64,000 bases of DNA from Marsupella aquatica (Eukaryota; Plantae; Marchantiophyta). The notes under the pieces were generated by a model. It was not told the DNA's origin. It worked only from the letters and a program-made list of their open reading frames with translations, and searched no databases. The position numbers and the translations under genes are program-made. Shown piece after piece: positions 18,920 to 59,800 of this stretch (positions within the stretch are counted from its first letter, which is position 1; every line of letters begins with the position of its first letter). The stretch covers positions 21,361,867 through 21,425,866 of the forward strand of contig OZ316894.1 of the NCBI GenBank assembly GCA_973895155.1, read 5' to 3'.

Positions 18920-19540
18920 CATTCTGCACGAAAACGATCGGCTTTCCCCAACATTGCATCAGGCTTCCTCCTCCTCTTCCTCCTTCATTCTGCATGACAA
19001 CGATCAGCTTCTCCCCAGCGTCGCGTCAGGCTTCCTCCTCCTCTTCTTGCTTCATTCTGCAAGAAATCGATCAGCTTCTCCCCAGCATTGCATCGGGCTT
19101 CCTCCTCTTCATCCTTCATTCTGCATGAACCCCATCGGCTTCTCCCCAGTATTGCGTAAGGCTTAGTGCTCCTCGTCCTGCTTCTATCTTGCATCAAAAT
19201 GATCAGCTTCTCCAACATTGCGCAAGGCTTCCTCTTCCATTTCATACTTCATTCCGCATCAAAACGATCAGCGTCGCCCCACCATTGCGCAAGGCCTCCT
19301 CCTCCATTTCCTGATTCATTCCGCATCAAAACGATCAGCCTCTCCCCAACATTGCGCACTCCATTTCATCCTTCATTCTGCATCAAAACGATCAGCTTCT
19401 CCCCAACATTCCACAAGGCTTCCTCCTCCATTTCCTGCTTCATTCCGCATTGAAAACGATCAGCCTCTCCCCAACATTGCGCAAGGCTTCCTGCTTCATT
19501 TCATCCTTCATTCTCCATGAAATCGATCAGCTTCTCACCA
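18920..19540. repeat. Degenerate tandem repeat (~66-bp unit, ~10 copies) immediately upstream of POLE
   Basis: Unit ~CATTCTGCATCAAAACGATCAGCTTCTCCCCAACATTGCGCAAGGCTTCCTCCTCC...TCCTT. The GATCAGC core recurs at ~18936, 19002, 19069, 19201, 19266, 19333, 19390, 19458, 19525. Confidence 0.9.
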
Positions 19541-19689: not shown

Positions 19690-20135
19690 GGCTCTGTAAC
19701 TCACGGTGTAAACTGTAAATCTCCATTAGTATTGGACAGGCGGTCTGGTATGAGGTTACTAGCATGTAACCCTATGTAACATATGGTGTAAGTTGTAAAC
19801 CTCTGGAGGTAGAAGAGATAGGCGTCTGGTGTTATTAGTATTTAACCCTATGTTACATGTGTAAACTGTAAACCTCTGGAAGTAGAGGAGATGGGCAGTC
19901 TGGTCTGGGGTTACTAGCATGTAACTCTATGTAAATTGTGTAAACTGTAAACCTCTGGAAGTATAAGATAATGGCGGTCTGGCCTGAGGTTACTAGGATG
20001 TAACCCTATGACAAGAAAGTGAGGAGAACAGTCTGGCCTGGGGTTACTAGAATGTAACCCTATGACAAGAAAATGAGGAGAAGGGTCTGGCCTGGCGTTA
20101 CTAGCATGTAACCCTATGACAAGAAAGTGAGGAGA
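19690..20135. repeat. Degenerate tandem repeat array (GTCTGG..GGTTACTAGCATGTAACCCTATG modules)
   Basis: GTTACTAG(C/G/A)ATGTAAC(C/T)CTATG and TGTAAACTGTAAACCTCTGGA modules repeated about 7 times. Confidence 0.8.
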
Positions 20136-20233
20136 ACCCTATTGGAAAGTTTTTAGGAGCTTTCTTGGAGCAAGGTTCAGGTAAGAACCCTTGCCCAAAT
20201 GTCCATTATAGTACATAAATCCTGTCAAGAGAA

Positions 20234-20930: not shown

Positions 20931-21710
20931 ACTAACTCAATACCCGTGCGTTCCACAAAAAATGTCGTGTCGGCCAAGTTGTCATTGAGAACAAAAGATA
21001 TCGTGTCGGCCAAGACGCCGGTGAGAAGATGTCATGTCGGCCAAGTCGGCCAAGAAGTCGTTGAGAGCAAAAGATGTCGTGTTGCCCAAGATGTTATGTC
21101 GGCCAAGATGTCAGGGAGAACGAAAGATGTCGTGTCGGCCAAGAAGTCGATGAGAACAAACAGGAGAACAAAAGATGTTGTGTCGGCCAGGAGGTTGTTG
21201 AGAAGAAAGATGTCATCTCGGCCAAGAGGTTGTGGAAGAAATAGAGGTCGTGTTGCCAATGGTGTTGTTATGCCAAAGGTTTCGTTAAATATAACAATGT
21301 TGTTAAATACAAAATAGCTCAATACCTGTGCGTTGCACAAAAGATGTTGTGTAGCCCAAGATGTTGTTATGTGAAAGATGTTGTGAAGCAAAAAGATGTC
21401 ATTAAGAACGATGAAGTTGTTTCGCCAAAGATGTAGTTATGTTAAAGACGTTGTCAAGTAAAAAGATGTTGTTAAAAAAGAAGTCATTTTGCCAAACATG
21501 TCGTCAAGTAAAAAGTTGTCATCAAGTAAAAAGTTGTCGTCAAGTAAAAAATTGTCATTTACAAAAAAGACGTCATTTTGCCAAAGATGTCGTTTTGCCA
21601 AAGATGTCATGAATAAAAAGATTTAGTCGAGTGAAAAGATGATGTGGTGCCAAATGGGTCGTTATGCAAAAGACATTGTGAAGTAAAAAGATGTCGTCAA
21701 GTAAAAGTGT
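20931..21710 (-). mobile_element. Probable non-autonomous Helitron remnant with AAGATGTCGT(GTCGGCC) tandem repeats
   Basis: Two copies (20931, ~21313) of ACTA(A/G)CTCAATACC(C/T)GTGCGTT(G/C)CAC. Its reverse complement resembles the plant Helitron 3' end (GTGCAACGCACGGGTA...CTAGT). Followed by degenerate AAGATGTCGT repeats. Confidence 0.45.
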
Positions 21711-23316
21711 GCCCCCTAGCCCAACACCTTGCCATCAATGTTAGTGCCATGATATTTGCTATGTCTTTGGACCTTATAACTTTTGATTTTTTGGCAGTGA
21801 AAATGGCACAAAAAATGAATGTAAAAAATCACCCTGAATATTGGAAGAATTATGTTTTATTTACGGACCTCATTAGGGATCCTTTCCAAAATTCCAGGCT
21901 CCACAGCGCGTGACATCATCATGGCACACTACAAACACAAAGAGACTTGTTTTTGGATAAAATTAATTTCTGCATTCATGTTTGTGGCAACTTTTCTATA
22001 AAATCTGGGACGTTATGCTTTAAAAGAGAATGTAAAAAAATCTGACATGCAAATCAAAAGACAAAGATTGAGGTAAAATTGCCCCTAGTAACGGTTTCAT
22101 TTATAGTTTGATTTTACTCAAAATGTAAAATTTTCTCGGCAGCAATTTTTGATTTGACATTGTTAAGTCAAATCATAATGAAAACTCACGTATAATATGA
22201 CGTTGGAACAATCTTGAAGAGACGGTCCTAATGAGCTCAGGATTGTCACCATTCAGTAAGAATTGAGTAAGCAATTTCAAAAATAGATTTTACCCTTGAT
22301 TTCATAATCTCTAACGTGAATACCCGTGTGAATAGAAATAAAAAAATTTGTTCCACAACCCTTGAAATGTTGATCCCTTCCATGAGAATGAACCAAAAAT
22401 TTGACAGATTTTATCGAGTACTAAGGAGATTATGAGTTTTAGAATTTCCTTAGATTTTTAATGAACTTAACATTGATAGATTTAATTGAGTTTTGAGTAG
22501 ATTATGAGTTTCTAAATTTCTCTAGCTTTTGATCGATTCCAAAGTCTACAATTGGAGATATGTTTTCATGAATGTTTTGTCTCAAACAATTATGCTAAGT
22601 TAGTGATTTGACGACAATGTCGGCTTCTCTCTTCATCTCTCTACATGTAGGAATTGAAAAGCGATTACTTTCAATGCAACTTGAGTGCATCTGACATCCT
22701 TTTGGTACCATGGAGGAAACCATGGAGCACCGTTTTGCTGAAGTGGGCAATTAAACTACCCAACATTAAACAATAGTTCACATTGTAGCTGGTTTTGTGA
22801 TTCATGTTAATTCTGGTTGCCTTGGTAAGTTTGGCAACTGTTTCAAGTGTCAAACACTGACTTGTCCATTTTTGAAGAAAAAAATAATCTTTAGATTTGG
22901 AGGTCTAGTTGGGCTTGAGTTTCTAGACAATGGCCTCTGTTAGGTATTGCTCTTAGTCTTGTGACTCTTGAGCTAACCACAGTTAGGCTAACTTAGGTTA
23001 GGACTTAGCTAAGGTTAGCGGTAGTGCTGTTGTGTATAAAGCTAGGGCTGGTGCGAGTCCTTGGTGGATCTTCAGGTCATTGTTGGAGTGGAGCAAGAGA
23101 GAAGTAAAGGTCTCTTGCTTTCCCATGGACGTAGCCTCAACCGTGAGGTGAACTATGTACTTGCTGTGTCGACTACTTTGTATGGTGTTCATATGTGCAT
23201 GGTGTCTCGGGATAAGGATTATCCCCAACAGCCTCTAAAATAACATGGGTCGGGGGTCCACTGATTAATTGGTTAGTGTATGTAGTCCCCTATTGATTGA
23301 AATAGTATCTGAAATT

Positions 23317-23648
23317 TGTCACACCATTCTAGGTAGTGTTAGAGTGTATCGTACTATCTAGATCCGTATGTTTGGTATGTGTGCTATATGAGCTGATAAG
23401 GTTCCGTTAGGTTTGTGTGAGAGGGTACTTCTCACTTGTGAGGCATTGAAAGGTCATCTTTCAATGTTGAGCCTTGGAGAGAGAGGAGCTTGAGTGTGGC
23501 TATGGTGGCTGTGAGCTCCGCTTGTGTAACGTGGATTCCTTGAGTAGTGCAAGGTGCGTTGGCTTGACATACATGTGTGATCGGATCGGTGTGGGATCGA
23601 TGGGGTATTGTTGACCGGGATCGTTGTGCCGATTGTATGGAGATTACA
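23317..23648 (+). repeat. Terminal repeat A1 (5' end of retroelement)
   Basis: 23317-23646 matches 31761-32090 with 7 substitutions by my count (6 transitions). Begins TG and ends ...GAGATTACA. Confidence 0.95.
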
Positions 23649-24660
23649 TTAGAAGATCAGATGCGAACTTTGTTGTGCGGACTGTGCAAACAGAAGTTCA
23701 TATGTGTTGATTGAGTTGGGGACGGTTTGGGGAAATCATTGTGTGGATCCGTGGTAGCTCGGATCGTATTGAATAGATCATTGGTATCTTGGTTGGTTGC
23801 TGGTAACGGATCTGAAGTGGGAGATCCGAGTTCTGAAGTTTTGCTGTTGACGGTTTTCGGATAGAGTTCTCAAGCAGATCTGTGGTGCCGTTCGATCATT
23901 GTGAAGCCTTTGATAAGCTGATTGGGTGATTATTGCGTGAGGCACGCGAGGTCACCCATCCCGAAAGTGCTCCCAACCGCGAGCGCAAAGTCATCCATCG
24001 CGAGCGCAGGCAGGCGCGAGGTCGAGGTCACCCATCCCGAGGCTATTCCGGGCCGTGAACGCGAGGGGAGGCACGAGGGCTATTCCGAGTCGTGAGCGCA
24101 AGGCGAAGCGCAAGGTCACCCATCCCGGGGCTATTCCCAACCGCAAGCGCTTAACTGGCAAGTTCTCATCCCACCTTGTGTACACACAAGTTTTCACAAC
24201 TTGTTGTTTAGATTCAAGCGCCAGGGGGCTTTATACACTTTCCGGTTTGCTTAGAGCCTTGTTTCGGGCCAAATCATAGGCTCTTTAGAGATTTTTGATA
24301 GTTCTGAGTTCATCTAAATACACAGATTGAACCAATTCTGCATGGTTTCTCATCTATAACATTGGGACATGATGAAGCCTATTATGAAGGCCTGTCATTG
24401 AACATTATGAATATTTGTTTGATCAATGTGTGATCACTCTTGGTGTGGAGAGTTAGTGTTTGACTATTCTTGTTGATTGGATCCTCTCCACACTTGTTTC
24501 CTGTTTATGCGCCATGTTGGTTCGGTATGGGCGCTTGATTCCATAGGAGTGATCCGGGTTTGCAACCGGACATTCTAGTGTGCTGTGTATTTCTCTCCTG
24601 GTGATGTTGGAGTGATGCCCAACACACCATGATATGTAGACATTGCGTAACGCCACGTTG

Positions 24661-26049
24661 TTTACCTGTTTCATGGCATGGAAGGGATTATTTCAGCATT
24701 TGGAGGGGTCACCCATGGATAACTACCATGAGTTTTGGAAGGCTCATTTGGTTGAGATTGAGGCATGGAGGTAGCATTGGTCACCTAATTACGTGTCCAT
24801 CACCTATGGCACTAGTGCGGCTGCCCAACCCATTGCCACAACTGCTGCTTCTTCTAGCAGCACTAGCCAGAGTGGCACACCATCCACCAGCAGCACTCCA
24901 ACAGCATCCACCGCTACTCCTGCCGGTGTGATTGTGACAAGAACTGGAGTTGCGCCAGCATTTAACCCTATGGTGGAATTCTTTGAGGTACTGAAGCAGA
25001 ACTATCAGGGTGTGAGAACTGATAAGTTGAAGGGTCTCCAGGAGTTCCAACGTAAGATTGGAGAGAGTCTACGCGAGGCATACACTCGTATGCGCAGATT
25101 GATCACTGTCACCAAGGGAGTGGCAGAGGCTCAGGCAGTCCAGTTTTGGTATGCAATTCTGGACAGAGAATTGCGACGCAAAGTGAGAGATGTCACCTTG
25201 CTTAGGGATGCAGATCCCACATTGGCAGTTGTTTTTACCCTTTCTGAGCGTATTGAGCTCAATATGGTGAATGAGAAGGTGGTGACTTCCGGATTTTCCA
25301 AGGAAGCACCAAAGGCTGCGTCTACATCCACACCACAGCCTACTACACGGAAGAGCCAGAGGAAGAAGCCTACTGCACGAGAGTCTACCAGCCAGAGACC
25401 TGTGCCCTCTTATGCTGGACAACAGTCAGGATGTTGGACCTGTGGTGGGGATCATGCACAGAGATATTGCCCACATCATAGAGGATCAGGGGGAGCATCA
25501 GCGCCTGATTAGCGATAGTGTGATCACTGTGGAGCTCCTAGACACACCAAGGATAGGTGTTTCTCACTCCACCCTGAGTTACGGAGAGGAGGATCACGTA
25601 CACATGATCAAGAAAGAGGAGGAGGAGGTAGAGGTGGTGGACGTGGTCGTGGCATGCCACATGCAGGGAGACAGGGAGGTGACGCTGCCCTTGCTGTAAC
25701 CATAGATCCAAAGGATGCTAAGATTGCTCAATTGGAGCAACAACTAGTTGCCATGGCTAGTTCCCAGGTGAGACCTAATTTTGGTGATGGGGCATCTACA
25801 TCCTATGGACCTTCCACATCCCATGGTCCTTCCATATCTTATGGAGCTAATGGAGACCTTGCCACCATGGGATTCATGTGTGGCACTGCACATATTGATG
25901 CATCAACAACGTTGACACGTGGGGCAGCCAAAGCTCTTGAGCCCCGAGGAGCAGTAGTGGAGTTAGATCCACAGAGGGGGATGCACGTTGGCAGACAAAG
26001 CTTCCTCAGTCTTTTATATTGTCAGAGACAATTTAGACTACCTTTATGA
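24661..26049 (+). pseudogene. gag: gag of the retroelement (capsid-like region, two CCHC zinc knuckles, RGG tract), interrupted by in-frame stops; true start not determined
   Basis: LQEFQRKIGESLREAYTRMRRL (retrotrans_gag-like Q..GES motif). Knuckle CWTCGGDHAQRYC and, reading through TAG codons at 25510 and 25516, CDHCGAPRHTKDRC. Same frame continues into ORF 25654-26049. Confidence 0.8.
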
Positions 26050-26435
26050 ACCCGGTTTGGACAAACCCTGATGTGGGTAAGTCGGCAGAATCAGGTAGTG
26101 ATGCAGCAGGGATGACAGGTACCCTACTGGGGGCGGCTACTGCCATGGTACGCACCCCATTATTTTCAGCAACAGACATGCTGAACTTGGGAGTTGGTCC
26201 TGCATAAGTGTTCAGATTGGCAGCTACACTCTGTGAGGACATTCCAGTGGTTGCTTCCCATGCAGAAGCAACTTGCAGTGTTGAAGCAGTGAAGACCATG
26301 CCACCTACTGCTACTAGTGAGACATGGCATGCAGCAGCAGCAAGGTTGGTGGAATTACCAGCACGCTCTGCATTTGAGAGGACTAGGTTCAAACCTAGTG
26401 TTGTGTCATTGGAGAATCGAAGTGGTATCTTCTGA

Positions 26436-26790
26436 TTAGTTGGGCCTTCTGGGGCAGTATACCAGCCAGAGAGAGTGTTACTGAATATTGGTGCTCAACC
26501 CTTGATGTTGGGTAAGTCTACCATACGTGGATTGGGATTGCGTCTGGAGGATTTGGAGGATTGTCCCTTTCCCATTCAGACTTCATTGGGGGACCTACAC
26601 CTACACAGCACATTACCAAGAGAGCTCTTGATTTGAGGTTTCAGGAAGGTCATACCACAGATAGCTCACAGATATAGGCGCGAGCTATTCTGACTAAGGC
26701 AGAGTCATATGATGTGTTGGTGGGATGTATAGTGCTCTACCCCATGGAATTTATTCTTGATTTTTGGGAGGAATCAGTGTCATATAGACA
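26436..26790 (+). pseudogene. Retroviral-like aspartic protease domain (degenerate, frameshifted)
   Basis: RVLLNIGAQPLML (DTGA motif degenerated to NIGA by two transitions) and downstream YDVLVG (ILG-like motif) in a shifted frame. Confidence 0.7.
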
Positions 26791-27189
26791 GGACATCTAT
26801 ATATGGCAATCAGAAGATGCTCGATTGAGCAAATTGCTAGTGAGATTTAGTGGACCTATGGGAGGCCCTAAATCCACACCATTGTCTTTGGCAGCATTCA
26901 GTGGTCAATTGCTGGACCTGATGATTTGATTGAGGGTAATGCGCATGCAGCAGATGTTCCACCATTGGAGGAGTCTCATGAGGAGCACATCATGCGAGGA
27001 TTACCTATTGGCAGTGTTGTGCCACCAGTGTGGGGCACTGCACAGGCCTTGCCACACGCAGCAGCACGATTGGTACATGATGCATGACGTCATGCTTTTA
27101 CACCACAGTCAGGACCAGAGCAGTCTCTTGCAGATGGACTTGTGACTCTTTCACCATTAGATACCACTCCTATTGCTTGGCAATACCCA

Positions 27190-28140
27190 CTGGTATTTGC
27201 TTGTTGGATCTTTTTGGTGGGATTAGCAGATTGGCTGTTGTTCTTCAGGCAGAAATTCTTGTGCGTCGTTATTTGTATGTGGAGACAGATGAGACAGCAC
27301 GGAGGGTCTCATTGCGACATGTGGCTATGTTGGTGGATAGATATCCACAATTGCTGCCAGTGGATGCTGTTTGTGGTTATCAGCATGCACTACCTGCTGA
27401 TATTTCATTGTTGGGGGCGGATCATCTGCATCGTGTTGGCCCCATTGATTTGGTGATTGCTGGTTGGCCATGTTAGGACCAATCTAGAGCTGGCATTGGG
27501 CATGGACTTCATGATCCACGCTTTGCACTATTTTGGGAGATGTTACGGGTGCTGCGTCATCTCCAGCTACATCAGACACAGTCTCCAGCCATTTTGGAAA
27601 ATATGTCATTGTTAGGTGATGATCGTAGTCGGATTGTTGCTAGTGTTCACCAGGTGAGGTCTTGGATTGGACCTGCTGTGTTATTGGATGTTGCACGTGT
27701 GGGTTCTCGTGCACATCGTCCACGCTTGTGGTGGACCAATTTGATCCCATGTGAGGTGCTGAAGCGCGCATTTGACAGCATTCCACGCTCACCAGCCTTA
27801 GTGGTGGATGATATTTTGGATCTAGGGCGTCGTGCACAGGGTGTGACCCAATCTGATAGACCTCCATTGGCAGTGGTCAATGTAGTTGGGCACCCACGTT
27901 GTGCATTACCCACTCTTGTAAGCCACTCTGCTTCATATGCATTCAAAGCAAGTGGCCCTGGACTTGTGTGGGACACATCTCTCCAACAGTTAGTGGAGCC
28001 TACTGCTGATGAGAGAGAGCGTGTTATGGGATTTTTGACTGGCACCACTGCAGTTGCCTCTGTGTTAGAGGGTTTGCGGCGCCAGGTTCTTGGTCAAGCA
28101 ATGGATCTGAATTGTTTGACTTGGATTATCAGCTTGGGAG
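27190..28140 (+). pseudogene. DNMT3-like C5-cytosine DNA methyltransferase domain embedded in pol (nonsense codon right after catalytic PC)
   Basis: Motif I LLDLFGGI, II YVETD, III ADI, IV GPIDLVIAGWPC*(TAG, likely from CAG), VI ILENM, VIII RAHRPRLWWTNL, IX ERERVMGF..G.T, X RRQVLGQAMD. Canonical non-permuted order. ORFs 27084-27476 and 27540-28322 share a frame with RT. Confidence 0.92.
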
Positions 28141-28472
28141 TAGTTGAACAATTGCGGATGCGCTCTACTAGAATTACTGATTGCCCCTTGGTGAGCTTGC
28201 AGTCCACTGAGACAGTACTGACCACAGCTGGGGGCGAGCAGACCTATGGACCTATGGCAGGATTGGCCAAGGCTGGACAGATTGTTGAGCAGGAAGGGAC
28301 TGCTCAATCTACTGCTAAATAGCAATCATCGACTATCTCTTCTACCCTACAAAGAGATATTAGGGATTTGGTGGAGAGTGAGGAACCACAGCTTGGCCCT
28401 AAGTTGACAGGGAAGGAGAGACGTCGCATGCATTGATTCCTGAAGAGTTACTGGAATTGTTTTGCATTTAGC

Positions 28473-29219
28473 ATGAAGGATTTGGGGACATTAAAGGGTC
28501 CTGGTATTCAGATTGAATTGGCTAGTGATGCGCCAATCTTTCGTAGGCCATACCGTTACACTGACATGGAGAGAGCTCTGATTCAAAGTAGAAATCAAGA
28601 TTTGTTGGAGGCTGGATTGGTGGAGATTTCATATGAGGAGTATGCATCTGCCACAGTGATGCCAGCCAAGAACGATGTGCATGGCAATTACACAGATAGG
28701 CGCATTTGTGGTGATTACAAACCCATTAATCGCCAAACAAAATCTGATAGATATGCCATGCCCACACCTGAGGAGATCTTTGATGTTGTGGGGCATGCAA
28801 AGGTTTTTAGTTCATTGGATCTGAGGGCAGGGTACCACCAGCTTCCAATTAGGCATGCTGACAGGTCCAAGACAGCATTCTGGGGGATTGATTCTTATGG
28901 CGAGGATCGTTTGTATCAGTGGTTATTCTTACCATTTGGGTTGAAGAATGCACCAACTGAGTTCCAGAGAGTCATGGATCGAATCCTTGCAGGTTTGGAT
29001 TTTGTCAGATGTTATATTGATGATATTTTGGTCTATTCTTCTACTGTGGAAGAACATCAGCAGCACTTGCAGATTGTGTTGGAGAGATTGAGAGCACATG
29101 GGTTGAAGCTCCATCTTAGCAAGTGTAAGTTCTTCCAAGACCAGATTGAGTATTTGGGCCACACTATATACCCAGGGGGATTGGGTGTACAGCAGACTAA
29201 AGTAGAGGCCATTACATAG
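28473..29219 (+). CDS. pol: Reverse transcriptase domain (Ty3/Gypsy type), part of interrupted pol
   Basis: RICGDYKPIN, FSSLDLRAGYHQL, KTAF, LPFGLKNAP.EFQR, YIDDILVYS, KCKF..IEYLGH. Confidence 0.96.
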   Translation: MKDLGTLKGPGIQIELASDAPIFRRPYRYTDMERALIQSRNQDLLEAGLVEISYEEYASATVMPAKNDVHGNYTDRRICGDYKPINRQTKSDRYAMPTPEEIFDVVGHAKVFSSLDLRAGYHQLPIRHADRSKTAFWGIDSYGEDRLYQWLFLPFGLKNAPTEFQRVMDRILAGLDFVRCYIDDILVYSSTVEEHQQHLQIVLERLRAHGLKLHLSKCKFFQDQIEYLGHTIYPGGLGVQQTKVEAIT

Positions 29220-29237
29220 ATTCCTTGTCCTACTGAT

Positions 29238-30098
29238 GTGAGTAGAGTTCGTGCATTCTTGGGATTGGCGAGCTACTACAAGAGGTATGTTAAAGGATTT
29301 AGCCAGCTTGCTAAACCTTTGACCATACTCACTAAGTTGGATCATGAATGGATTTGGGGTGATGACCAGGAGCATGCCTTTCAGGAGTTGAAGCAAAGGT
29401 TGGCATCATCCCCTATTTTGAGAAGACCCATTTTAGGCAGACCATTTCAGCTACACACTGATTGGAGTGGCGTAGGACTTGGAGCAGTGCTGACTCAGAA
29501 GGATGATGAGGGGAATGAGTTTGTTGTGGCTTATGCCAGCAGATCAAACAATTCAGCAGAGGCTAAGTATAGCTCTTATGAGGGAGAGTGTTTGGCAACA
29601 GTGTGGGCTGTTGCACATTTTCGTTGCTACTTATTTGGTAACCCCTTCACCTTGATCATTGATCATCAGCCTCTTAAGTGGTTAATGGAGTCTGACAAGC
29701 TTACAGGGAAGCTTGCACGATGGACATTGTTGTTACAGGAGTATGATTTCCAGGTGGTGCATAGGCCTGGGAAAGTGAACTTGGATACAGATGGATTAAG
29801 CCGCAATCCATGTACTAGTCAGCAAGATGAGACTGGAGCCAGATGGCATGATGAGTCAGATAAGGAGATGGTGCCAGGATGGCATGCATCTGCCTTTCTT
29901 TGTTGGATGCCAGCATATAGTGGATCTGTGGACTCTACCTCATTGGATGGAGTGGATGAGGAGTCTTCAGATGTAGATGTTGGTGAGGTAACTTCTGGAC
30001 AACAAGATATTCACAATGATGTGAGAATGTTGGAATATCTGCGCAGTGGTTCTATTGTTGGCAATGTTGATGCCAAAGAACGTGACAGGGTTCTATAG
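29238..30098 (+). CDS. pol: RT connection + RNase H domain, part of interrupted pol
   Basis: VRAFLGLASYYKRYVKGFS, FQLHTDWSGVGLGAVLTQ, VAYASR, YSSYEGECLA, FTLIIDHQPL, RWTLLLQEYDF..HRPGK.N..DGLSR. Confidence 0.95.
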   Translation: MSRVRAFLGLASYYKRYVKGFSQLAKPLTILTKLDHEWIWGDDQEHAFQELKQRLASSPILRRPILGRPFQLHTDWSGVGLGAVLTQKDDEGNEFVVAYASRSNNSAEAKYSSYEGECLATVWAVAHFRCYLFGNPFTLIIDHQPLKWLMESDKLTGKLARWTLLLQEYDFQVVHRPGKVNLDTDGLSRNPCTSQQDETGARWHDESDKEMVPGWHASAFLCWMPAYSGSVDSTSLDGVDEESSDVDVGEVTSGQQDIHNDVRMLEYLRSGSIVGNVDAKERDRVL

Positions 30099-30134
30099 AG
30101 AGCCAAGAGGTTTCGATGGGAGGAAAACCATCTT

Positions 30135-31448
30135 TTGAGAGTACTGCATGATGGCAGGGTGTTGGTGGTACCAAAACCATCACAACGAGTCCATTTGGTG
30201 CGACATGCACACGAGGAGTTGGGGCACTTTGGTGTGAAGCGCACTTATAGCTTGCTACAGACACAGTATTGGTGGCGTGGTATGCACACTCATGTCCAGC
30301 AGTTGATAGCTAAGTGTGTGGTATGTGATAGAGTGAGAGCATCATTTAATGCTCCCACTCCCCAGTTGCACCCGTTGCCGATCATGGGTTTGGGATATCG
30401 TTGGAGTTTGGATTTTGTTGGTCCATTACCTCTTACCCAATGTCATAATCGGTATGTTTTGGTCATGGTGGAGCACTTCTCCAAGTGGATTGAGCTAGTG
30501 ACATTGCCAGATAAAGCCAGTGGAGGAGTTGCTGCTACATTTTTGGATCGTGTACTCAGTCATTTTGGAGCACCAGTTGAGGTATTGACTGATCAGGGAA
30601 CTGAGTTCCGTGGAGAGTTTGAGAATTTGTGTGAGCAAGCTCTGATTGATCATCGTACTACCTCTCGTGATCATCCTGAGGCAGATGGATTAGCTGAGAG
30701 AGTTGTGCAAACTGTGAAGAGAGGATTGCGTAAGTATGGCTTGCAGGTTGGTCATTTGGGAGATTGGGATCTCCAGCTACCTTGGTTAGCTATGGGCTAC
30801 CATTTCAGTCGACAAGCATCACTTGCATCCTTCTCACCTTACTTTTTGCTCTATGGTAGAGAGCCAGATTTGCCAACAGCAATTCGTCGTGATGCTGCAC
30901 CAATTGTGAACTTGGATGATCCTGATGTTTGGGCCAAGGTGTGTTCAGAGAGAGCACAGGTATTTCAGAGAGTAATGCCCATGACTTTTGACAACCTTGC
31001 CATTGCCCAACATCGTGATACTTTGAGGTATGCCACTATTCGTGGAGGAGGTTATCGTGCAAGCATTCGACGATTTCATCCTGGTGATTATGTTTATTTG
31101 CAGCAGACAGCACCCACGACACTTGATGTGATCGTAGGCCGGACAATCTTACGTGTGCATGAAGTGTTGCCTTCTGGTGTCCTGATGTTGGAGGGATGCG
31201 ATGGTATGGTTTGGAAGGATCATGTGCGCAACTGTGCACCATGTCACCTTCCCAACATTGATGGTACAGTAGATCCAAGCTTGGCACATGTTCGTGCTGG
31301 CTTGAAATGTATGTTGTGTGGATCTGCTCAAGGAGCAACTACTATGTTGATTTGTGATAAGTGTTCTAGAGGATGGCACATGTCATGTTTGACACCACCA
31401 TTGCAGGTGATTCCTAGTGGATCATGGTTGTGTCCTCAGTGTCGGTGA
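30135..31448 (+). CDS. pol: DDE integrase with N-terminal HHCC zinc finger and C-terminal PHD finger
   Basis: HAHEELGHFG...CVVC; catalytic WSLDFVGP, LTDQGTEF, GLAERVVQT. C-terminal CMLC...ICDKC...WHMSC...WLCPQC (C4HC3) at 31308-31445. Confidence 0.95.
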   Translation: MRVLHDGRVLVVPKPSQRVHLVRHAHEELGHFGVKRTYSLLQTQYWWRGMHTHVQQLIAKCVVCDRVRASFNAPTPQLHPLPIMGLGYRWSLDFVGPLPLTQCHNRYVLVMVEHFSKWIELVTLPDKASGGVAATFLDRVLSHFGAPVEVLTDQGTEFRGEFENLCEQALIDHRTTSRDHPEADGLAERVVQTVKRGLRKYGLQVGHLGDWDLQLPWLAMGYHFSRQASLASFSPYFLLYGREPDLPTAIRRDAAPIVNLDDPDVWAKVCSERAQVFQRVMPMTFDNLAIAQHRDTLRYATIRGGGYRASIRRFHPGDYVYLQQTAPTTLDVIVGRTILRVHEVLPSGVLMLEGCDGMVWKDHVRNCAPCHLPNIDGTVDPSLAHVRAGLKCMLCGSAQGATTMLICDKCSRGWHMSCLTPPLQVIPSGSWLCPQCR

Positions 31449-31612
31449 AGCCGACTAGTTATCATTTGTGTTCTCTTGGCAGATATGGATTGCAGGTAGG
31501 TGATCGATGGGGCTCACTTGCACCCGGCCTCCTGATCTTCACACCTAAAAAGGTGTATATCAACCTTGTAGAACTCATGGCTAGCTAGAGTTAGGGGACC
31601 TTATTTCCAGCT

Positions 31613-31621
31613 AGGGGGCGA
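31613..31621 (+). other. Putative polypurine tract
   Basis: AGGGGGCGA directly before TTGTGGG, the start of repeat B1 (TG at 31623). Confidence 0.55.
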
Positions 31622-31758
31622 TTGTGGGTTTTGGACATGTGTGGACATGAGTTCCACTTGTATTCCATTCTCTTGTGTTTGTGATGTGGCAGTGTGACTA
31701 TGTTTGGATGTATGTGACAAGCGATGTATGTTGTGTAGCGATGTGTATGCGCACGACA
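31621..31758 (+). repeat. Repeat B1 (internal copy of the element's 3'-terminal segment)
   Basis: Matches 32090-32227 with 4 transitions. Ends CACGACA, followed by GC and then A2. Confidence 0.95.
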
Positions 31759-31760
31759 GC

Positions 31761-32090
31761 TGTCACCCCATTCTAGGTAGTGTTAGAGTGTATCGTACTA
31801 TCTAGATCTGTATGTTTGGTATGTGTGCTATATGAGCCGATAAGGTTCCGTTAGGTTTGTGTGAGAGGGTACTTCTCACTTGTGAGGCATTGAAAGGTCA
31901 TCTTTCAATGTTGAGCCTTGGAGAGAGAGGAGCTTGAGTGTGGCTATGGTGGCTATGAGCTCCGCTTGTGTAACATGGATTCCTTGAGTAGTGCAAGGTG
32001 CGTTGGCTTGACATACGTGTGTGATCGGATCGGTGCGGGATCGATGGGGTATTGTTGACCGGGATCGTTGTGCCGATTGTATGGAGATTA
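31761..32090 (+). repeat. Repeat A2 (internal copy of the element's 5'-terminal segment)
   Basis: Matches 23317-23646 but lacks the final CA of A1 at the junction with B2. Confidence 0.95.
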
Positions 32091-32227
32091 TTGTGGGTTT
32101 TGGACATGTGTGGACATGAGTTCCACTTGTATTCCATTCTCTTGTGTTTGTGATGTGGTAGTGTGACTATGTTTGAATGTATGTAACAAGCGATGTATGT
32201 TGTGTAACGATGTGTATGCGCACGACA
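32090..32227 (+). repeat. Terminal repeat B2 (3' end of retroelement)
   Basis: Copy of B1. Ends in CA, followed by the AATT TSD. Confidence 0.95.
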
Positions 32228-33067
32228 AATTTAACACCTACCAATATTACACTAAACTATGCACTATCTCACTCTTGAGTATGTACACCTTATTGAGTAT
32301 GTACAATACTCCCTATCATGGATCATGGAGGGAGGATCCTCCTTCATCCTTGTGCATTGTATTAGTGACCTCTCTTTTTTGTTTGCTTATCCCATTTCAT
32401 TCTCTCTTACTTGGACATTGATGTGACTCTTTTTCATTCACAGTGAATTAATTTTATTTTGTTTTTATTCCTTTCTTTTACCAGATTTTTTTTTGTGTTG
32501 TGCCCTGCAAATTTGAAAGACTACCGGGCTATAAAAGGGCGCAACTGTTTATGATAGAAGTTAATGTCCTTAGTGAGTTTCTCTCTTTATAATTTTCAGG
32601 ACAGTCAAGATTTGGTAATTGAAGCCACAATGGACCGTAGTGTTGGACAAAGTGCTCCCATGGACCACCAAAATATGGTCCATGGGAGTCAGGGGTCATA
32701 ACTTGATGGCTATGAATCCTAGAGTAATTTTTAGTTTTGCACCTGCAAGGCAACTATAGAAGGAGGAGACTAAAAAAACAACATAAACCCAGGTATTTCA
32801 TACTAACACAATGGAAAAAAATGAAAAACAACAAATACTAGCACAATGAAAATTAATCTAATGAAATTTACCCCTCCTCATTTTATGATGAAAAACTTAA
32901 CCAAAATGGCCAAAAAGTTATTGTCACTTTGATGGAAGTTTAGCGTACTTGCTCCTCATGCATATGCCAAAACTAGAAATATTTGAATTTATGAATATCA
33001 AGTTATTACAATTAAACTCAAACTTTGGGGCCAGAGAGACATGACTTTGTGGTAACTCACTTGAGTA

Positions 33068-33463: not shown

Positions 33464-34984
33464 CCTCCACTAAAATTAGTAAAAACAGAAATCAAACAAA
33501 ATTGCTAGGCCTTTAAGTGTACCAGGTCTTGTTACCAGGCATTATGGACAGTAGTAACCCCTCAAAACTGGAAGATTCAGTTGCTCACGGTACTATGACA
33601 CACAGTACTATGACACACAATGCCCTATAGGATACACACCTTGTTTTGAGGAGGGAATTCTGCAGTAACCCATCAATCTTGGCATATGTAACTCAAGTAC
33701 TAAAGTTTTACAGTAAAAAGCAAAATACCACAACATAAATTTGCCAGCAAATCTTTGCATGGCCTAAAATCCTGGCATCTTGACTTTATTTTGCTTTCTT
33801 TAAACAATATGGTATGACTTAATTTCAGGGGTTTAGTTTTTTTGTTTCTTTCCAAAACTTTCCCAGTTGTTTTTACGTAAGATAAAGTCCTGGTTATGAG
33901 TATTGTGGGTCATCATGTCCCCTCAACTTGGGCTAAAGCCCTTGTTTTGGGGGCACCATATCCCACAATCCCCTCTGATTATAACCAGGACGTTACCTTA
34001 TTCTTTAATTCTCTCCAAGATTTTTCTCTTTGTATATTTCTGACCTTATGGGAGCAAATGCCCACTGCAAAGAGCATTTTGAATTTTGCCTTTCACTTGT
34101 CCCCCACGTAAACAAAGTTAAATCTGAACTAGCATGAGATTTGGGTTTGTCTTCAACTGTGAAGAAAGGACAAACATAATAAAAATAGTGTGAGTAAAAA
34201 ATCTCTTAGGAATGAAAGTGTATTATGTTCTTTCTGCCAGGGCATTATGCACAATAATAGTCTCTCAAAACCTGGGCAAAATCCTGGTTTTGTGGGCATT
34301 ATAATCCACAACACCTTGGAAACTTGTCTTTCTGGTTGGGCATTGTGGGCTATCATGCCTCCTGAAACTTGGGCTAAAGCTCTTGTTTTGGGGGCTATAA
34401 ACCAGATCTTCTTGCACACTTGTCAAGCGATTGATAAAGCATGTTGGACAATTTCCACCATTGATATGAAATATCAAATGGATGTGCATGAAAGGGTGAC
34501 ATGGATTTTTCTCAGAGTTTGTACATTACAAGAGTCTTTAAGTCACAACTGCCCATATGTAAGGGGAAAAGTCCAAAACTTCCTTTTTCCACATTCCATT
34601 CACTTCTTTCCTCCAAGGTGCAAGTCTGCTCCACAGTTTTGGAAAAAAGTTACTCTGAATAGTGGAATTAAAATCCTACGGGTAACTGGAGATTGATGTT
34701 TATGAAATGGTCACTTGTATTATTCTTGAGAATATTGCTGGATGGACCTCTAAAATTGAAAAATGTTATTTGATGGACCTAGTAAAATTCCATGAGATTT
34801 TTGGTACATTAATTTAAGGCCAATAAACAATCTGGATCACTTATGGGTTCATCAAGTAATATTTTTCATTTTAGGGTGGACCAAGTAACTCTCTATTTAT
34901 AGGAATTCCTATCGCTGATGGGGTTCATCAATTAAGGCATTCAGTCTTGAGGTGGATCAAGTATCTCTCTATTTATAACAATGC

Positions 34985-35440
34985 GGATAGCTGATGGCAT
35001 GGGGTTCATCAATTAACACTTTCAGTTTAGGGGTGGATAAAGTATCTCTCTTTTTCTTGGAGTTCTACATTTACAACAATCTGTAAGTGGACCTGTAAAA
35101 ACTTGGATCCCTGTCTACAGTGTTGGCTCAAATGTTAACGGTGGTACTCATATATAGAGTCCCAGGTAACCATGGTCATTGCCTGGCACTGTGCCCATTG
35201 CCGCAATATTTATAACCTTGGGGATAGCTGATGGGGTTCATTAATAGACACTTTCAGTTTAGGGGTGAATATAGAGTATCTCTCTATTTCTCGGAGTTCT
35301 ACATTTACAACAATCTCAAAGTGAACATGTAAAAACTTGGATCGCTCTCTACAGTATTGGCTCAAATGTTAACCGTGGTACTCGTACATAGAGTCCGAGG
35401 TAACCATGGTCATAGCCTGGCACTGTGCCCATTGACGCAA
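34985..35440. repeat. Tandem duplication (~230-bp unit) upstream of the plus-strand gene
   Basis: AGCTGATGG..CACTTTCAGTTTAGGGGTG..GGAGTTCTACATTTACAACAATCT..TTGGCTCAAATGTTAAC..GGTAACCATGGTCAT.GCCTGGCACTGTGCCCATTG occurs twice, with partial copies from ~34860. Confidence 0.85.
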
Positions 35441-35524
35441 TCCGTTCGTCACTCTCTGTGCCTTTCTGCTCTGCTCTCTCCTCTGCTCTCTCCTCTGCTC
35501 TGCTCCTTCTCTGTTTTCCCATAG

Positions 35525-42531: not shown

Positions 42532-44016
42532 TCAGGTCTCATCATCCGGTTTAGTGTCTTGTTTTGTGGTCTCATCATCCGGTTTAGTGTCTTTTTTTGT
42601 GGTCTTGTCATCCGATGACAGTTCAGATTCTGATTCATCGAGCTCGCTGGCGCGGTCGTCTTTATCAGGAGCGGGAGGATTGGCTTTCCGCTCATGAAGA
42701 GCTTTGACGACGAGGTCGATGGCACTGTCCGGGTTGCTTCTCTCTTTGGTGAGAATCTCAGCAATTTCGGCAGGACTCATGAAGCTGGAGTCAATAATTT
42801 CCTGCACATCTGCGAAACGAGGGTGATCCTTGATCTGCAGGAAGTTTCTGACCAGAATTTTGAATGCGGGATAGCGGCAATAGCCAAGGTTGATGTGCAT
42901 GTCCATACGTCCCGGGCGTAGCAATGCCGGTTCCAACTTGTGGACAAAGTTCGTGGTGAAGATAAAGATGCGCTCAGATCCACATGCGGACCATAAACCG
43001 TCGGTGAAGTTGAGCAATCCGGAAAGGGTCACCTTGCTTGGCTTGTCTTCGTCATCGGTCTTACTTCTAGGATCCTTCGGTTTCTTCTCCGCAGACTTCT
43101 TCTTCTTCTTTCTTTGGCCGGAAAGGTCTAGCGAACAGTCAATGTCTTCGATGACTATGATGGACTTGTTGGAGGTGTGAAGAAGGAGCTTGCGCAGGTC
43201 CGAATTTGTTTGGACTTCCGTGAGCTCCAGATCATAGACGTCGTAGCGCAATCGGTTGGCCATCGCGGCGATAATCGAAGTTTTTCCTGTACCAGGAGGC
43301 CCGAAGAGCAGGTAGCCTCGTTTCCAAGCTTTGCCGACACGCCTGTAGAACTCTTCACCATGGACGAAACTGTCGAGGTCGTTCAGTAAGCTGAATTTCT
43401 GGTCTGGATCAAGAGCGACAGTGTCGAAACTGGCAGGGTGTTTGAAAGGAATACAAGTCCACCCACCACTCGTGCCGTTGCGATCAATGTTCCTGTTGGA
43501 ATACAGGTTCAGATCACGATTGGCCCTTTCAAGCACTTTAGCCTCCTCGACAATATAAGCGAAGTAGCTATCCAAGAGGAAATCCTTTTGTCGACGAGGC
43601 ATTTTCACTTGAAAGGCTCGCCTCTCATCACTGTTGCTCTCCCAGTTCATCCAAAGGGGGTTCCTCCGCTCCTCCACGTTGTGTATCCATTCCACTGGCA
43701 CTTTCTCGAAGTTATCACGGATGCGCTGATTTCTGGTCAGACTGAAGGTGAAGTTCTTTGCGTTCTTCGCCATTGACAAATTGGACTTGCGCGCTCGCTG
43801 TCGGGTTAGCGAGCTGAGGTAGGTCTGCACTGCGGCATACAGTTCGTTGGGAGTTGTGCCTTCGTACTGCGAAACGACGAAGTAGGTGTAAGGAGATACT
43901 AGATTCACTAACCGGTCTGCAAAGTAGTTCCAGTACTCGCTCGGTATGAATCCTTGCATGACGGCCGCCATTGCGAGCACCGATCCTATCCAACTCATCG
44001 TCTCCGAAATCTGCAT
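42532..44016 (-). CDS. BCS1-like plant AAA-ATPase (ASD/OM66 family), intronless
   Basis: 494-aa ORF. AAA_assoc-type N-term (NELYAAVQTYL), FKHPASFDTVALD, FYRRVGKAWKRGYLLFGPPGTGKT (Walker A), IIVIEDIDC (Walker B), VTLSGLLNFTDGLWS, ALLRPGRMDMHI. Ends in a duplicated TK.DTKPDDET tail. Confidence 0.95.
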   Translation of the reverse strand: MQISETMSWIGSVLAMAAVMQGFIPSEYWNYFADRLVNLVSPYTYFVVSQYEGTTPNELYAAVQTYLSSLTRQRARKSNLSMAKNAKNFTFSLTRNQRIRDNFEKVPVEWIHNVEERRNPLWMNWESNSDERRAFQVKMPRRQKDFLLDSYFAYIVEEAKVLERANRDLNLYSNRNIDRNGTSGGWTCIPFKHPASFDTVALDPDQKFSLLNDLDSFVHGEEFYRRVGKAWKRGYLLFGPPGTGKTSIIAAMANRLRYDVYDLELTEVQTNSDLRKLLLHTSNKSIIVIEDIDCSLDLSGQRKKKKKSAEKKPKDPRSKTDDEDKPSKVTLSGLLNFTDGLWSACGSERIFIFTTNFVHKLEPALLRPGRMDMHINLGYCRYPAFKILVRNFLQIKDHPRFADVQEIIDSSFMSPAEIAEILTKERSNPDSAIDLVVKALHERKANPPAPDKDDRASELDESESELSSDDKTTKKDTKPDDETTKQDTKPDDET

Positions 44017-56875: not shown

Positions 56876-59800
56876 TTAGCTGACTTTTTGCTTTGTGGCA
56901 ACATCAGCAGGAATTGTCCACTGCTTCCAATTTGTATACAAAATCAGAGGAACAAAGTGGGCAAATGAGTAAGACATAATGAACGCATCAAAGAGGAACG
57001 GGTATCTCGTTGGTGGCTGCAGTCTAAAGTACATCAAATGCAAGACAACTGCTCCTAGGACTGAAACACCTGAGAGAATTCTCGTAGTCGAAAGCTCTGG
57101 CCTATGTGAAGCTCCAGATATATTTCGGGATTGAGTTGGGGGTCTTGGAATCAGAAGGAATAACCACGCGAGGGCAAGATACGGAATGAGAAGGTCATCC
57201 CGGCAAAGAAGTGGAAGCATGGAGAACATTGAGTATGGGACAAGCCATTGCAGAACTTGAGGTTCCTCCAATGCCAAAAGACTTGCGGGGATTACTGGAA
57301 GCAGAATTGATTTCTCATGCACTGCAAAAAATGACAAAAGAAAACTATCAGGGCAATAACAACTGGAGCACAACGAGGCTTAGCAAAACAAACGAGGGCT
57401 TCAACACAAATTGTGACGAACAATATCGTCAGAAGTCAGTGCCCTACTTCCTTCAAACACATGGAGGCAACGTCTTCCTACTTAGGAACACTGAGGTCCC
57501 TTAAATGTGATAGCAGAAAACAGGAAGAACAGGAACATTAATCGGTACCTTGGTAGGAGAAGAAGTAGAAACCAAAAGAGCTGTTCAGCATCGCATACAA
57601 AAATCCTTTTCTACTAGGTGCACGTATTTGCTGAACCATCGATGGCAAAGCTGCTGATATGGTCGCACCTAAGGCGAGTTTAGCAAGGGTTGGTTGTGCA
57701 AAGAGATGCTTCCATTTAAACAACATAGCTGTTCCACACCAGAAATTCGCAACATAATCCTCATATAGTCCACGGTGCAAAGGTGCAAGCCGTGCCAAAA
57801 CCTGTTATTTTCAAAACAAACGAAGGATATATAAGTTCGAATTTCCATACAATCCATAGCAGGAATATAAATATAGCTCTGAACTCCGATTTCTCTTAAA
57901 TATGACAATAAATAAAAGACAAATTCACCCCTAAACTACCTTCAAGAAAGCTTCTCCATTTTAATCTACTAAAACGGCCTTTACCTCCAAAGCTGCCCCT
58001 GAGGACCGCAGAAAGGGCCACCAACATATAGTGAAAGTCGCAATTACAGTGCAACCGAGCACTAATACTCTGAGCAATGGATTCCTCCTCTGTAAAGACT
58101 TGCCTAGAAGATAAGCAAAAAATGCTGGTGCATAGTACATACTCATCTGCAACGACACAGTTCGAAAGACCCATGGATAAATTGAGTGATGTCCTTTCAG
58201 TGCAATTGTCCTGTACGAAAATCCCGAAAAGAGAGATTCAGACGTTCATAAATGAGGTGACAATTGAGGCAAACGGAGAAGAAAATGCAACCTGTTTGTG
58301 GTTGAGGGACAGAGAAAACAAAACACATGCTAGTAACTCTTGTCTTGACACCACCGCAGCTGCCGCTCCAACAGCTAGCCCCAAGCTTATACAGTTGTAC
58401 TGCACATACGTGGAACACAAGTTACTTACTGTCAATCAAATTATGTCAATGGTTGGTGGAGCTCCACACGTATGAAACGAGGTCGACCAGAATTTGTCAG
58501 AATACCATGGCATTCTATGACAGTGTATTCCGGAGGTAAGGTTTCAAGATGGTCAAGTCAAGGCAGTAAGGTACAATGACAACTTCTGCAACGGACAGCT
58601 TTGGGGCAAATGAGAATTCCTTAAAGGAAATATTATTAGAGAACTTTTCGAATGCATAGTAAAATGGGCCAGCAATGTAGCAGGCAACACATTGCACCTC
58701 TCAACTCGAAAACACAATCAACGGTAGGAGCAGTACCTGGAAGTGGCCATGATCAATTATAATGAGAGCAGGCTGTAAAAGGATCATTGTCAAAGCCCAT
58801 ATCCGTTGTTTTGCACCACGATGGGCATAAAATATGTTTATGAAGCATAGAGCTGCAGGAAAGAAAACAAGAATGTCCGATGACAGTACCGTCCAACGCA
58901 TCAGCAACTTGCTGCACCCTCTCATAAATCCCACAGTTTTTTTACGTCTTATCAGAGGAATTCCAGGGCAAATGTACATTAAGGACTCGACCAACGGGCC
59001 AGCCATACACAGGGAAACTAAATAAAAGAGCTTCATGAGAATCCCTAGTAGTTTCGACAACGACAGGACCTACTCTCGACACCAACAGACAGTAATCTTT
59101 TAATAAATCCAAATCCCATATTCTAATGCGTGCATTCATAAAACAGTCTTCTTTAAACTCCACCTCTGTTGTCCGCAGCAACTTACCAAGAGGTTAACTA
59201 TTGCATTGCGGTCATTCTTTGGAATGTTATTTAGTGGAGGTTAGAAGACAAGTAGAAGACAAAAGGATCTTTGCAGATTAAGGTGATTACAGATCTGAAA
59301 GCCACTGAGGGATGTTAATATTAATAACAAGAGGTTCATTGTCGGGGCTAGAATGCAAAGTGAGCGAGTCCTTCGCAAGGGACGATATATCAGACCTGCC
59401 ATATGTTTCGTAGCCTCGAGATGAATGCAGAGCTACAGCCTCCGGGTCCAACGCGCGAATCACAAGACCATGAACATAGCTCTGATACGCAGTGAGGGGG
59501 GGGTAGTCCAAACCCCACCACCCCAAGTCATTATCGGTTGTATTTCGATACCAATCTACGACAGGGGTATGAATTGTGATTTCCATCCAATGCCTTTGAG
59601 CTTCATAATCCCCAAACTTTGGTGGTGTACCTTTACCTGCACAAGGGAAAATGCTGATCAGGACAAAGATTATTACACAACTTCAATTTGACTAGTCAAT
59701 CAAAGGCTTTCCGAAAGGACACTTCATCGATGAGATACAACTGCGATTCCTTGTGAGTTCCCTGAGATCTCGACTGAGCTCCGGACATTCCAAGACCGAA

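Follow-up and report, generated by a model that had tools for sequence, protein, structure and literature searches.

The window, a 64,000-nucleotide stretch of Marsupella aquatica DNA (contig OZ316894.1), contains a Ty3/Gypsy element whose features are listed in Table 1. The Gypsy order of protease (PR), reverse transcriptase (RT), RNase H (RH), and integrase (INT) is present, the integrase being of the DDE type. When the Pol frame (27084 to 31448) was translated with X at the stops, conserved domains were identified in the order PF00145, RVT_1, RT_RNaseH, Integrase_H2C2, rve, and PHD. The Gag region between 24577 and 25431 matched the Gag of Marchantia protein P0002 at 52%, and the protease of P0001, a closely related protein, matched Asp_protease_2 below the cut-off. 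The best solved-structure matches of the PHD finger include CHD4, DPF3, ATXR5, and KDM5B.

Stops occur in the Pol frame at 27474, 28320, 28434, 29217, and 30096, and the final stop is at 31446. The window copy is dead: four of the stops are decay stops, one just past the catalytic PC and three in Pol, and frameshifts are present as well. Its repeats differ at 11 of 468 positions. CpG is depleted in the element (0.43 versus 0.66 in the flanks), a depletion that cannot tell methylation by the element itself from methylation by the host.

Table 1. Features of the Ty3/Gypsy element in the M. aquatica window (positions are those of the window)
Feature	Positions	Strand	Remarks
Ty3/Gypsy element, whole	23317-32227		4-bp target duplication on both sides
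Left 4-bp target-site duplication	23313..23316	+	Identical 4 letters at both ends
Terminal repeat A1	23317..23646	+	Begins TGTC; no B upstream; 7 differences from A2 in 330
Gag, broken	24577..25700 (end approximate)	+	Two zinc-knuckle-like motifs (25432, 25519)
Aspartic protease, frameshifted	26388..26830	+	71-82% to P0001 protease, in two frames
DNMT3-like C5 cytosine methyltransferase (predicted)	27186..28136	+	Stop at 27474, just past catalytic PC
Conserved in-frame stop, TAG CAA TCA	28320..28328	+	Gag-PR-DNMT ORF ends here
Reverse transcriptase	28437..29216	+	PF00078, E 2.5e-33; YIDD at 29013
RNase H	29220..29819	+	PF17917, PF17919
DDE integrase and H2C2 zinc finger	30099..30998	+	PF17921, PF00665
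PHD finger and final stop	31308..31448	+	PF00628, E 3.7e-10
Polypurine-tract-like G run	31613..31620	+	Adjoins B1; position kept in 6/6 complete elements
Repeat B1	31621..31758	+	4 differences from B2 in 138
Palindromic B/A junction	31755..31764	.	Right-end motif, 2-base spacer, left-end motif
Repeat A2	31761..32090	+	
Terminal repeat B2	32090..32227	+	Last letters GACA
Right 4-bp target-site duplication	32228..32231	+	

Outside the element, a single-exon plant AAA-ATPase gene lies on the minus strand (42535 to 44016), and its look-alikes have AAA_assoc and AAA_lid domains; this gene indicates a streptophyte host. Two further minus-strand stretches (56879 to 57379 and 59290 to 59682) are putative exons resembling an ALG6-type glucosyltransferase. 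Degenerate tandem arrays were seen at 18945 to 19523 (units of ~67 nt), 19742 to 20137 (54 to 79 nt), 20951 to 21701 (17 to 36 nt), and 34842 to 35441 (76 nt).

The DNMT3-like domain and its relatives

A sequence-only reading of the window had proposed a DNMT3-like, non-permuted C5 methyltransferase (DNMT) between the protease and RT. The motifs that it named lie in a single frame and in the places given: LDLFGGI (27204), YVETD (27276), GPIDLVIAGWPC (27438 to 27473), ILENM (27591), RAHRPRLWWTNL (27708), ERERVMGF (28011), and RQVLGQAMD (28080). The ORFs starting at 27084, 27540, 28473, 29238, and 30135 share one frame, as it had stated. PF00145 matched the read-through frame with 27.6 bits (cut-off 22; E 2.5e-6); the match was obtained only from the frame joined with X at the stops, and neither DNMT half alone gave one. 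Position 27084 did not hold as a start, as similarity to relatives begins only at 27186 and two different frames each hold part of the protease.

The resemblance to DNMT3 was borne out by the profile and by the modelled fold of a relative. The intact relative P0001 (83% identical) was used for a structure model (pLDDT, 94.5). The best Foldseek match of the model was DNMT3A (E 3.7e-20; TM, 0.75); against DNMT3B the Z score was 29.4 (root mean square deviation, 2.5; 269 residues aligned), compared with 26.0 for M.MpeI and 22.2 for HhaI. A profile of 19 domains ranked solved structures with E values of 1e-26 for DNMT3A, 1e-24 for DNMT3B, 1e-14 for DRM, and 1e-8 for HhaI, and DNMT2 was far lower than DNMT3 in both fold and sequence comparisons. 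The element domain is intronless and non-permuted, and its key residues are conserved: of 152 full domains, 146 have the catalytic C, 150 have the E of motif VI, and 144 and 147 have the respective R residues of motif VIII. The active-site loop reads WPC or WEC where SPC is expected, and, compared with DNMT3A, the domain carries an insertion behind motif I.

The ratio of nonsynonymous to synonymous changes (dN/dS) was calculated by the NG86 method. For the pair L026 and L027, which is unsaturated (dS, 0.26), it was 0.12 for the DNMT and 0.07 for the RT. The window copy compared with its sister family gave 0.15 to 0.17 (RT, 0.09 to 0.10), with dS near saturation, and comparisons between subfamilies gave 0.09 to 0.27 for the DNMT. 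Among dead copies of the sister family the ratios were 0.41 to 0.75, with similar values for RT, as expected from decay. The values of 0.12 to 0.17 indicate purifying selection on the DNMT, which is a stable and selected part of the Gypsy element, located between the protease and RT. The DNMT3-like domain, matched by PF00145, is genuine and occurs across the family.

Protein searches returned 65, 233, and 110 proteins, with close relatives in Marchantia, Calypogeia, and Sphagnum and distant ones in chlorophytes. Named matches were from Marchantia polymorpha (60 to 75% identity), M. paleacea, Calypogeia fissa, two Sphagnum species, Closterium, and Haematococcus; further chlorophyte matches were from Tetradesmus and Hariotina, both named, and from Chromochloris, identified by label. 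No Klebsormidium nitens protein was among the matches listed in the protein searches, and locus scans using single proteins gave no match. In a metagenome scan, 600 matched stretches yielded 313 confirmed relatives, 80 of which were kept (L001 to L080). Both L001 to L043 and L044 to L080 are presumably Sphagnum-like, judging from named-protein similarity and shared contig series. Three runs contained the window family itself at great depth; among the 40 of 215 variant rows covered, the stop at 28434 was missing from nearly all copies. Viral contigs were also considered as relatives and rejected; they gave weak matches only (E of at least 1e-13), which were taken as ordinary phage C5 methyltransferases.

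The relatives have the following layouts: (i) in layout A, Gag-PR-DNMT is followed by a stop and then by RT-RH-INT-PHD; (ii) layout B has the same order without the stop, so that DNMT and RT are in one ORF; and (iii) layout C is RT-RH-DNMT-INT-PHD, and all named layout C proteins are from chlorophytes. In 35 proteins, the DNMT is placed after RNase H and ahead of integrase. A single ORF for DNMT, RT, and RNase H is found in family B and in the chlorophyte type but not in the window subfamily. The DNMT end and the RT start were both present in 61 loci (33 and 28), with the domain in the same place.

Loci L044 to L080 (for example, L045:4378-13692) represent a second DNMT-bearing Gypsy family with a DNMT ~40 to 45% identical, similar split repeats and junction, and a fixed stop at no codon surveyed. 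The chlorophyte polyproteins P0186, P0192, P0228, and P0231 carry a related DNMT between RNase H and integrase, and we found no description of them in the literature. P0063, a Closterium gene model, combines a Copia polyprotein with a protease-DNMT piece and is probably a nested insertion or an annotation artefact.

In a quick DNMT tree, all 18 element DNMTs formed one group (SH-aLRT, 99), within which the eight type A sequences formed a subgroup (97). The quick RT and DNMT trees agreed by group, the RT tree having no true DNMT-less outgroup. The element DNMTs were sister to animal DNMT3 and four DNMT3-like proteins in the DNMT tree, in which plant DNMT3 and DRM are absent and labels are partly provisional. 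Plant DNMT3 was absent from the 30 of 150 representatives that were scanned and from the 10 named ones. Four proteins (P0431, P0439, P0440, and P0445) had no PWWP or ADD match and were nearer to animal DNMT3 than the element DNMTs are. Five short thrips DNMT3-like proteins (P0407, P0415, P0421, P0422, and P0432; 318 to 410 amino acids) have a catalytic domain only, and some are multicopy.

A conserved stop between the DNMT and RT

The five ORFs of the shared frame had been read as parts of a single ancestral (PR)-DNMT-RT-RH-INT-PHD polyprotein, separated only by TAG or TGA codons. This view is not supported for the window subfamily, in which a conserved in-frame UAG-CAR stop divides Gag-PR-DNMT from RT-RH-INT-PHD. 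The sister family has one fixed stop among 1592 codons, found in 32 of 33 copies (23 TAG and 9 TAA; the other copy has TAC), and the next-highest share of stops at any codon is 10/25, with sense codons mixed in. The group A sample consisted of 33 sequences, the window included, each with the DNMT end and the RT start. TAR-CAR was present in the linker of 29 of these, including all 24 in which the frame is kept, where it lies 36 to 43 codons before the RT anchor; of 546 decay stops, just 12 have CAR as the next codon. Divergent subfamilies also have the stop, in linkers whose lengths (300, 360, 414, 474, and 483 nt) are each divisible by three. The 33 copies share ancestry, and an insertion can be represented from more than one sample, so that independent support amounts to about five subfamilies.

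A fully intact element coding region on a metagenome contig, L026:976-8229, consists of ORFs of 1369 and 1047 codons that are joined by TAG CAG TTA and contain no other stop. The P0001 protein terminates at the residue that corresponds to the window stop at 28320. Among 55 proteins with a protease and a full DNMT, 45 end 60 to 180 residues past the DNMT, and 7 continue; these comprise 5 spliced gene models, whose junctions differ, and 2 proteins of type B. The stop and its six-base context conform to UAG CAR YYA in the window, L026, L027, L034, and L060. The sister family has CAA CCC rather than strict CAR YYA, with an ATG two codons later. In family B, the linkers have this stop in 0/28 cases, and the highest stop share at any codon is 15/34. 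The stop at 28320 is not due to decay, because of its CAA TCA context, its fixation in the sister family, and its being the sole stop in the intact L026 element.

UAG CAR YYA is the readthrough signal of tobacco mosaic virus (TMV), for which the accessible part of one report gives 6 to 10% readthrough in stable Arabidopsis lines (PMC2754532); in the same part, rice gypsy elements appear as computational readthrough candidates only. A conserved RNA structure 3' of the stop was unsupported, with an unfavourable covariation term, compensation in 1 of 34 pairs, and a window z of -1.5. A literature search did not find a stop placed after a protease and a cargo enzyme. On these sequence data, we consider it quite likely that the stop at 28320 is leaky and is read through.

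Split terminal repeats and known systems

The window element and the five loci with both ends have split repeats in the order A, coding region, G-rich tract, B, 2-base spacer, A, B. The B/A palindrome, built from the right-end and left-end motifs, was identified in the window and 11 loci, always downstream of the coding region. B was found upstream of the left end in 0 of 21 cases, which disfavours a symmetric two-LTR circle opened at either junction. A 4-bp target duplication was present in 4/6 complete elements, and a tRNA-type TGG after A1 was absent from the six. No tyrosine recombinase match was found in the Pol frame, where rve and H2C2 were. The bases 3' of A1 can pair with a site inside A: in family A, 6 of 12 ends paired better than every one of 200 shuffles, and for 9 of 15 ends in family B no more than 4 shuffles did as well. 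This pairing was not significant in the window (142/200). Its appearance in relatives suggests self-priming, and the paired sequences differ between the two families. At L036:2018-2035 and L045:4669-4686, the bases after the 5' repeat pair over 12 to 18 nt with a site ~160 to 180 nt into the repeat. The B/A junction resembles two element ends joined to each other, which an integrase could open. Together, the split repeats, the palindromic junction, and the target duplication suggest that integration follows an unusual route.

KnitGypsy-Dnmt3 of Klebsormidium nitens is described, in the available text of de Mendoza et al. 2018 (PMC5890265), as a Gypsy element with a DNMT3-like domain, DIRS-like repeats, and purifying selection. 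The window element shares with it the Gypsy domain set, the non-permuted DNMT3-like domain, the DIRS-like repeats, and the purifying selection, and by analogy probably works in a similar manner and is its kin. However, as far as that text goes, the KnitGypsy-Dnmt3 methyltransferase is in the ORF of RT and RNase H, whereas here a conserved stop lies between the DNMT and RT. The Gypsy-DNMT3 type is therefore already known from Klebsormidium, and the DNMT ahead of a conserved stop is the new feature. Marchantia and Sphagnum are absent from the accessible part of the 2018 survey (PMC5890265).

The same part describes SymbioDIRS-Dnmt3 of Symbiodinium, whose repeats are in the order A-coding-B-A-B and which, in yeast, methylates CG (PMC5890265). 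SymbioDIRS-Dnmt3 and SymbioLINE-Dnmt likewise represent a C5 methyltransferase carried by a retrotransposon, but in the descriptions available they use a tyrosine recombinase or LINE machinery, whereas the window element has a DDE integrase and is flanked by a 4-bp target duplication. Cymbomonas and Euglena have EpiLTRs, LTR elements that likewise combine a cytosine methyltransferase with a chromatin reader; according to the accessible text, their DNMT is sister to DNMT4 and accompanied by DAM and a chromodomain, and the authors regard them as distinct from streptophyte Gypsy-DNMT3 (bioRxiv 10.64898/2026.05.21.726589). The host protein PpDNMT3b has a non-permuted DNMT3-type catalytic domain in common with the element, but in the portion available it is multi-exonic with a C-terminal DUF3444 (PMC6453930), whereas the element domain is intronless and has no DUF3444 Pfam match. 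Other literature, in its accessible parts, names just streptophytes and dinoflagellates as hosts (PMC12344493; bioRxiv 10.64898/2026.05.21.726589). Neither a land-plant Gypsy-DNMT3 family nor the fixed stop was found in the literature covered, which did not extend to Repbase and most subscription papers, or in the available text of PMC6317226, PMC6453930, PMC9940879, PMC6673714, PMC11982613, and PMC4157794. Chlamydomonas REM1 is a PHD-bearing element with unusual LTRs.

Proposed mechanism and alternatives

In the model that we favour, the first ORF would yield abundant Gag-PR-DNMT, and rare readthrough would add RT-RH-INT-PHD. The DNMT would be packaged in capsid-level amounts, freed inside the particle by the protease, and would methylate the cDNA of the element before integration, so that new copies would arrive methylated like host heterochromatin. 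Host DNMT3s carry an ADD domain, and the PHD finger of the integrase may be its counterpart, a reader used in targeting. Taken as a whole, with the Gag-PR-DNMT ORF, the leaky stop, co-packaging, activity on DNA, and cDNA as the substrate, this model seems to us somewhat better than an even prospect. Since family B lacks the stop and chlorophyte elements have the DNMT inside Pol, capsid-level amounts are not needed lineage-wide. Counting against the model is the isolated KnitGypsy-Dnmt3 domain, which gave no methylation in yeast, a result that its authors call inconclusive in the text available (PMC5890265).

The layout would be unchanged if Pol were instead produced by splicing, internal initiation, or reinitiation that skips the stop. 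Such a route is known from Ogre elements, in which Pol is made by splicing or internal initiation around a stop. Introns bypass the stop in five annotated Marchantia and Sphagnum gene models, and the sister family has a pyrimidine-rich stretch along with the ATG two codons past the stop. However, the junctions of the gene models disagree (in three of them, motif X and RT are 36, 79, and 101 residues apart), the frame is held over five linker lengths, and the intact L026 and L060 have no Met within 90 codons after the stop; we therefore think this route unlikely. Equally unlikely, in our judgment, is that the DNMT acts in the nucleus rather than in the particle, where it would methylate the insertion site, earlier copies, or rival elements, for instance, in copy-number control. 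Bulk production would presumably exceed the need of one cDNA, and the integrase PHD is most like readers such as CHD4, DPF3, and KDM5, which prefer unmethylated H3K4. Yet the enzyme is tied to the particle in every layout, through fusion to Gag-PR or through placement between RNase H and integrase, and the K. nitens methylome is not unusual.

We give still less credence to retention of the domain for nucleic-acid binding or RNA modification rather than DNA methylation. The WPC or WEC loop and, in the accessible account, the lack of DNA methylation by the K. nitens domain in yeast (PMC5890265) are in keeping with such a role, but the near-invariance of the catalytic C, E, and R and the proximity of fold and sequence to DNMT3, with DNMT2 much lower, speak against it. 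These splicing, nuclear, and noncatalytic alternatives overlap in part. The broken state of the window copy would also fit a one-off host DNMT3 fragment captured by a dead element; this is contradicted by the recurrence of the domain in the same place within the element in 61 loci, by the purifying selection on it, by the single group formed by the element DNMTs, and by the agreement of the DNMT and RT trees, and we regard it as having a negligible chance of being correct.

A wider scenario is offered tentatively and appears to us doubtful as a whole. An ancient green-plant Gypsy lineage, spanning chlorophytes, mosses, and liverworts, would have kept one DNMT3-like enzyme throughout, and one branch would have moved the DNMT ahead of a leaky stop, with enzyme-filled particles and premethylated cDNA. 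The DDE integrase would open circular or end-rebuilt cDNA at the B/A palindrome, and self-methylation might mark the junction to be cut.

What retrotransposon-borne DNMTs do has been a question since 2018; at that time, in the available account, the sole Gypsy case was that of Klebsormidium, inactive in yeast (PMC5890265). Marchantia polymorpha is a genetic model with relatives of the window element, making the question testable in a land plant. Many "cytosine methyltransferase" annotations in Marchantia and Sphagnum are such elements and not host genes. If readthrough is similar to that of TMV, the DNMT would be made in roughly tenfold excess over RT or integrase, and this dosage would limit the possible roles of the enzyme.
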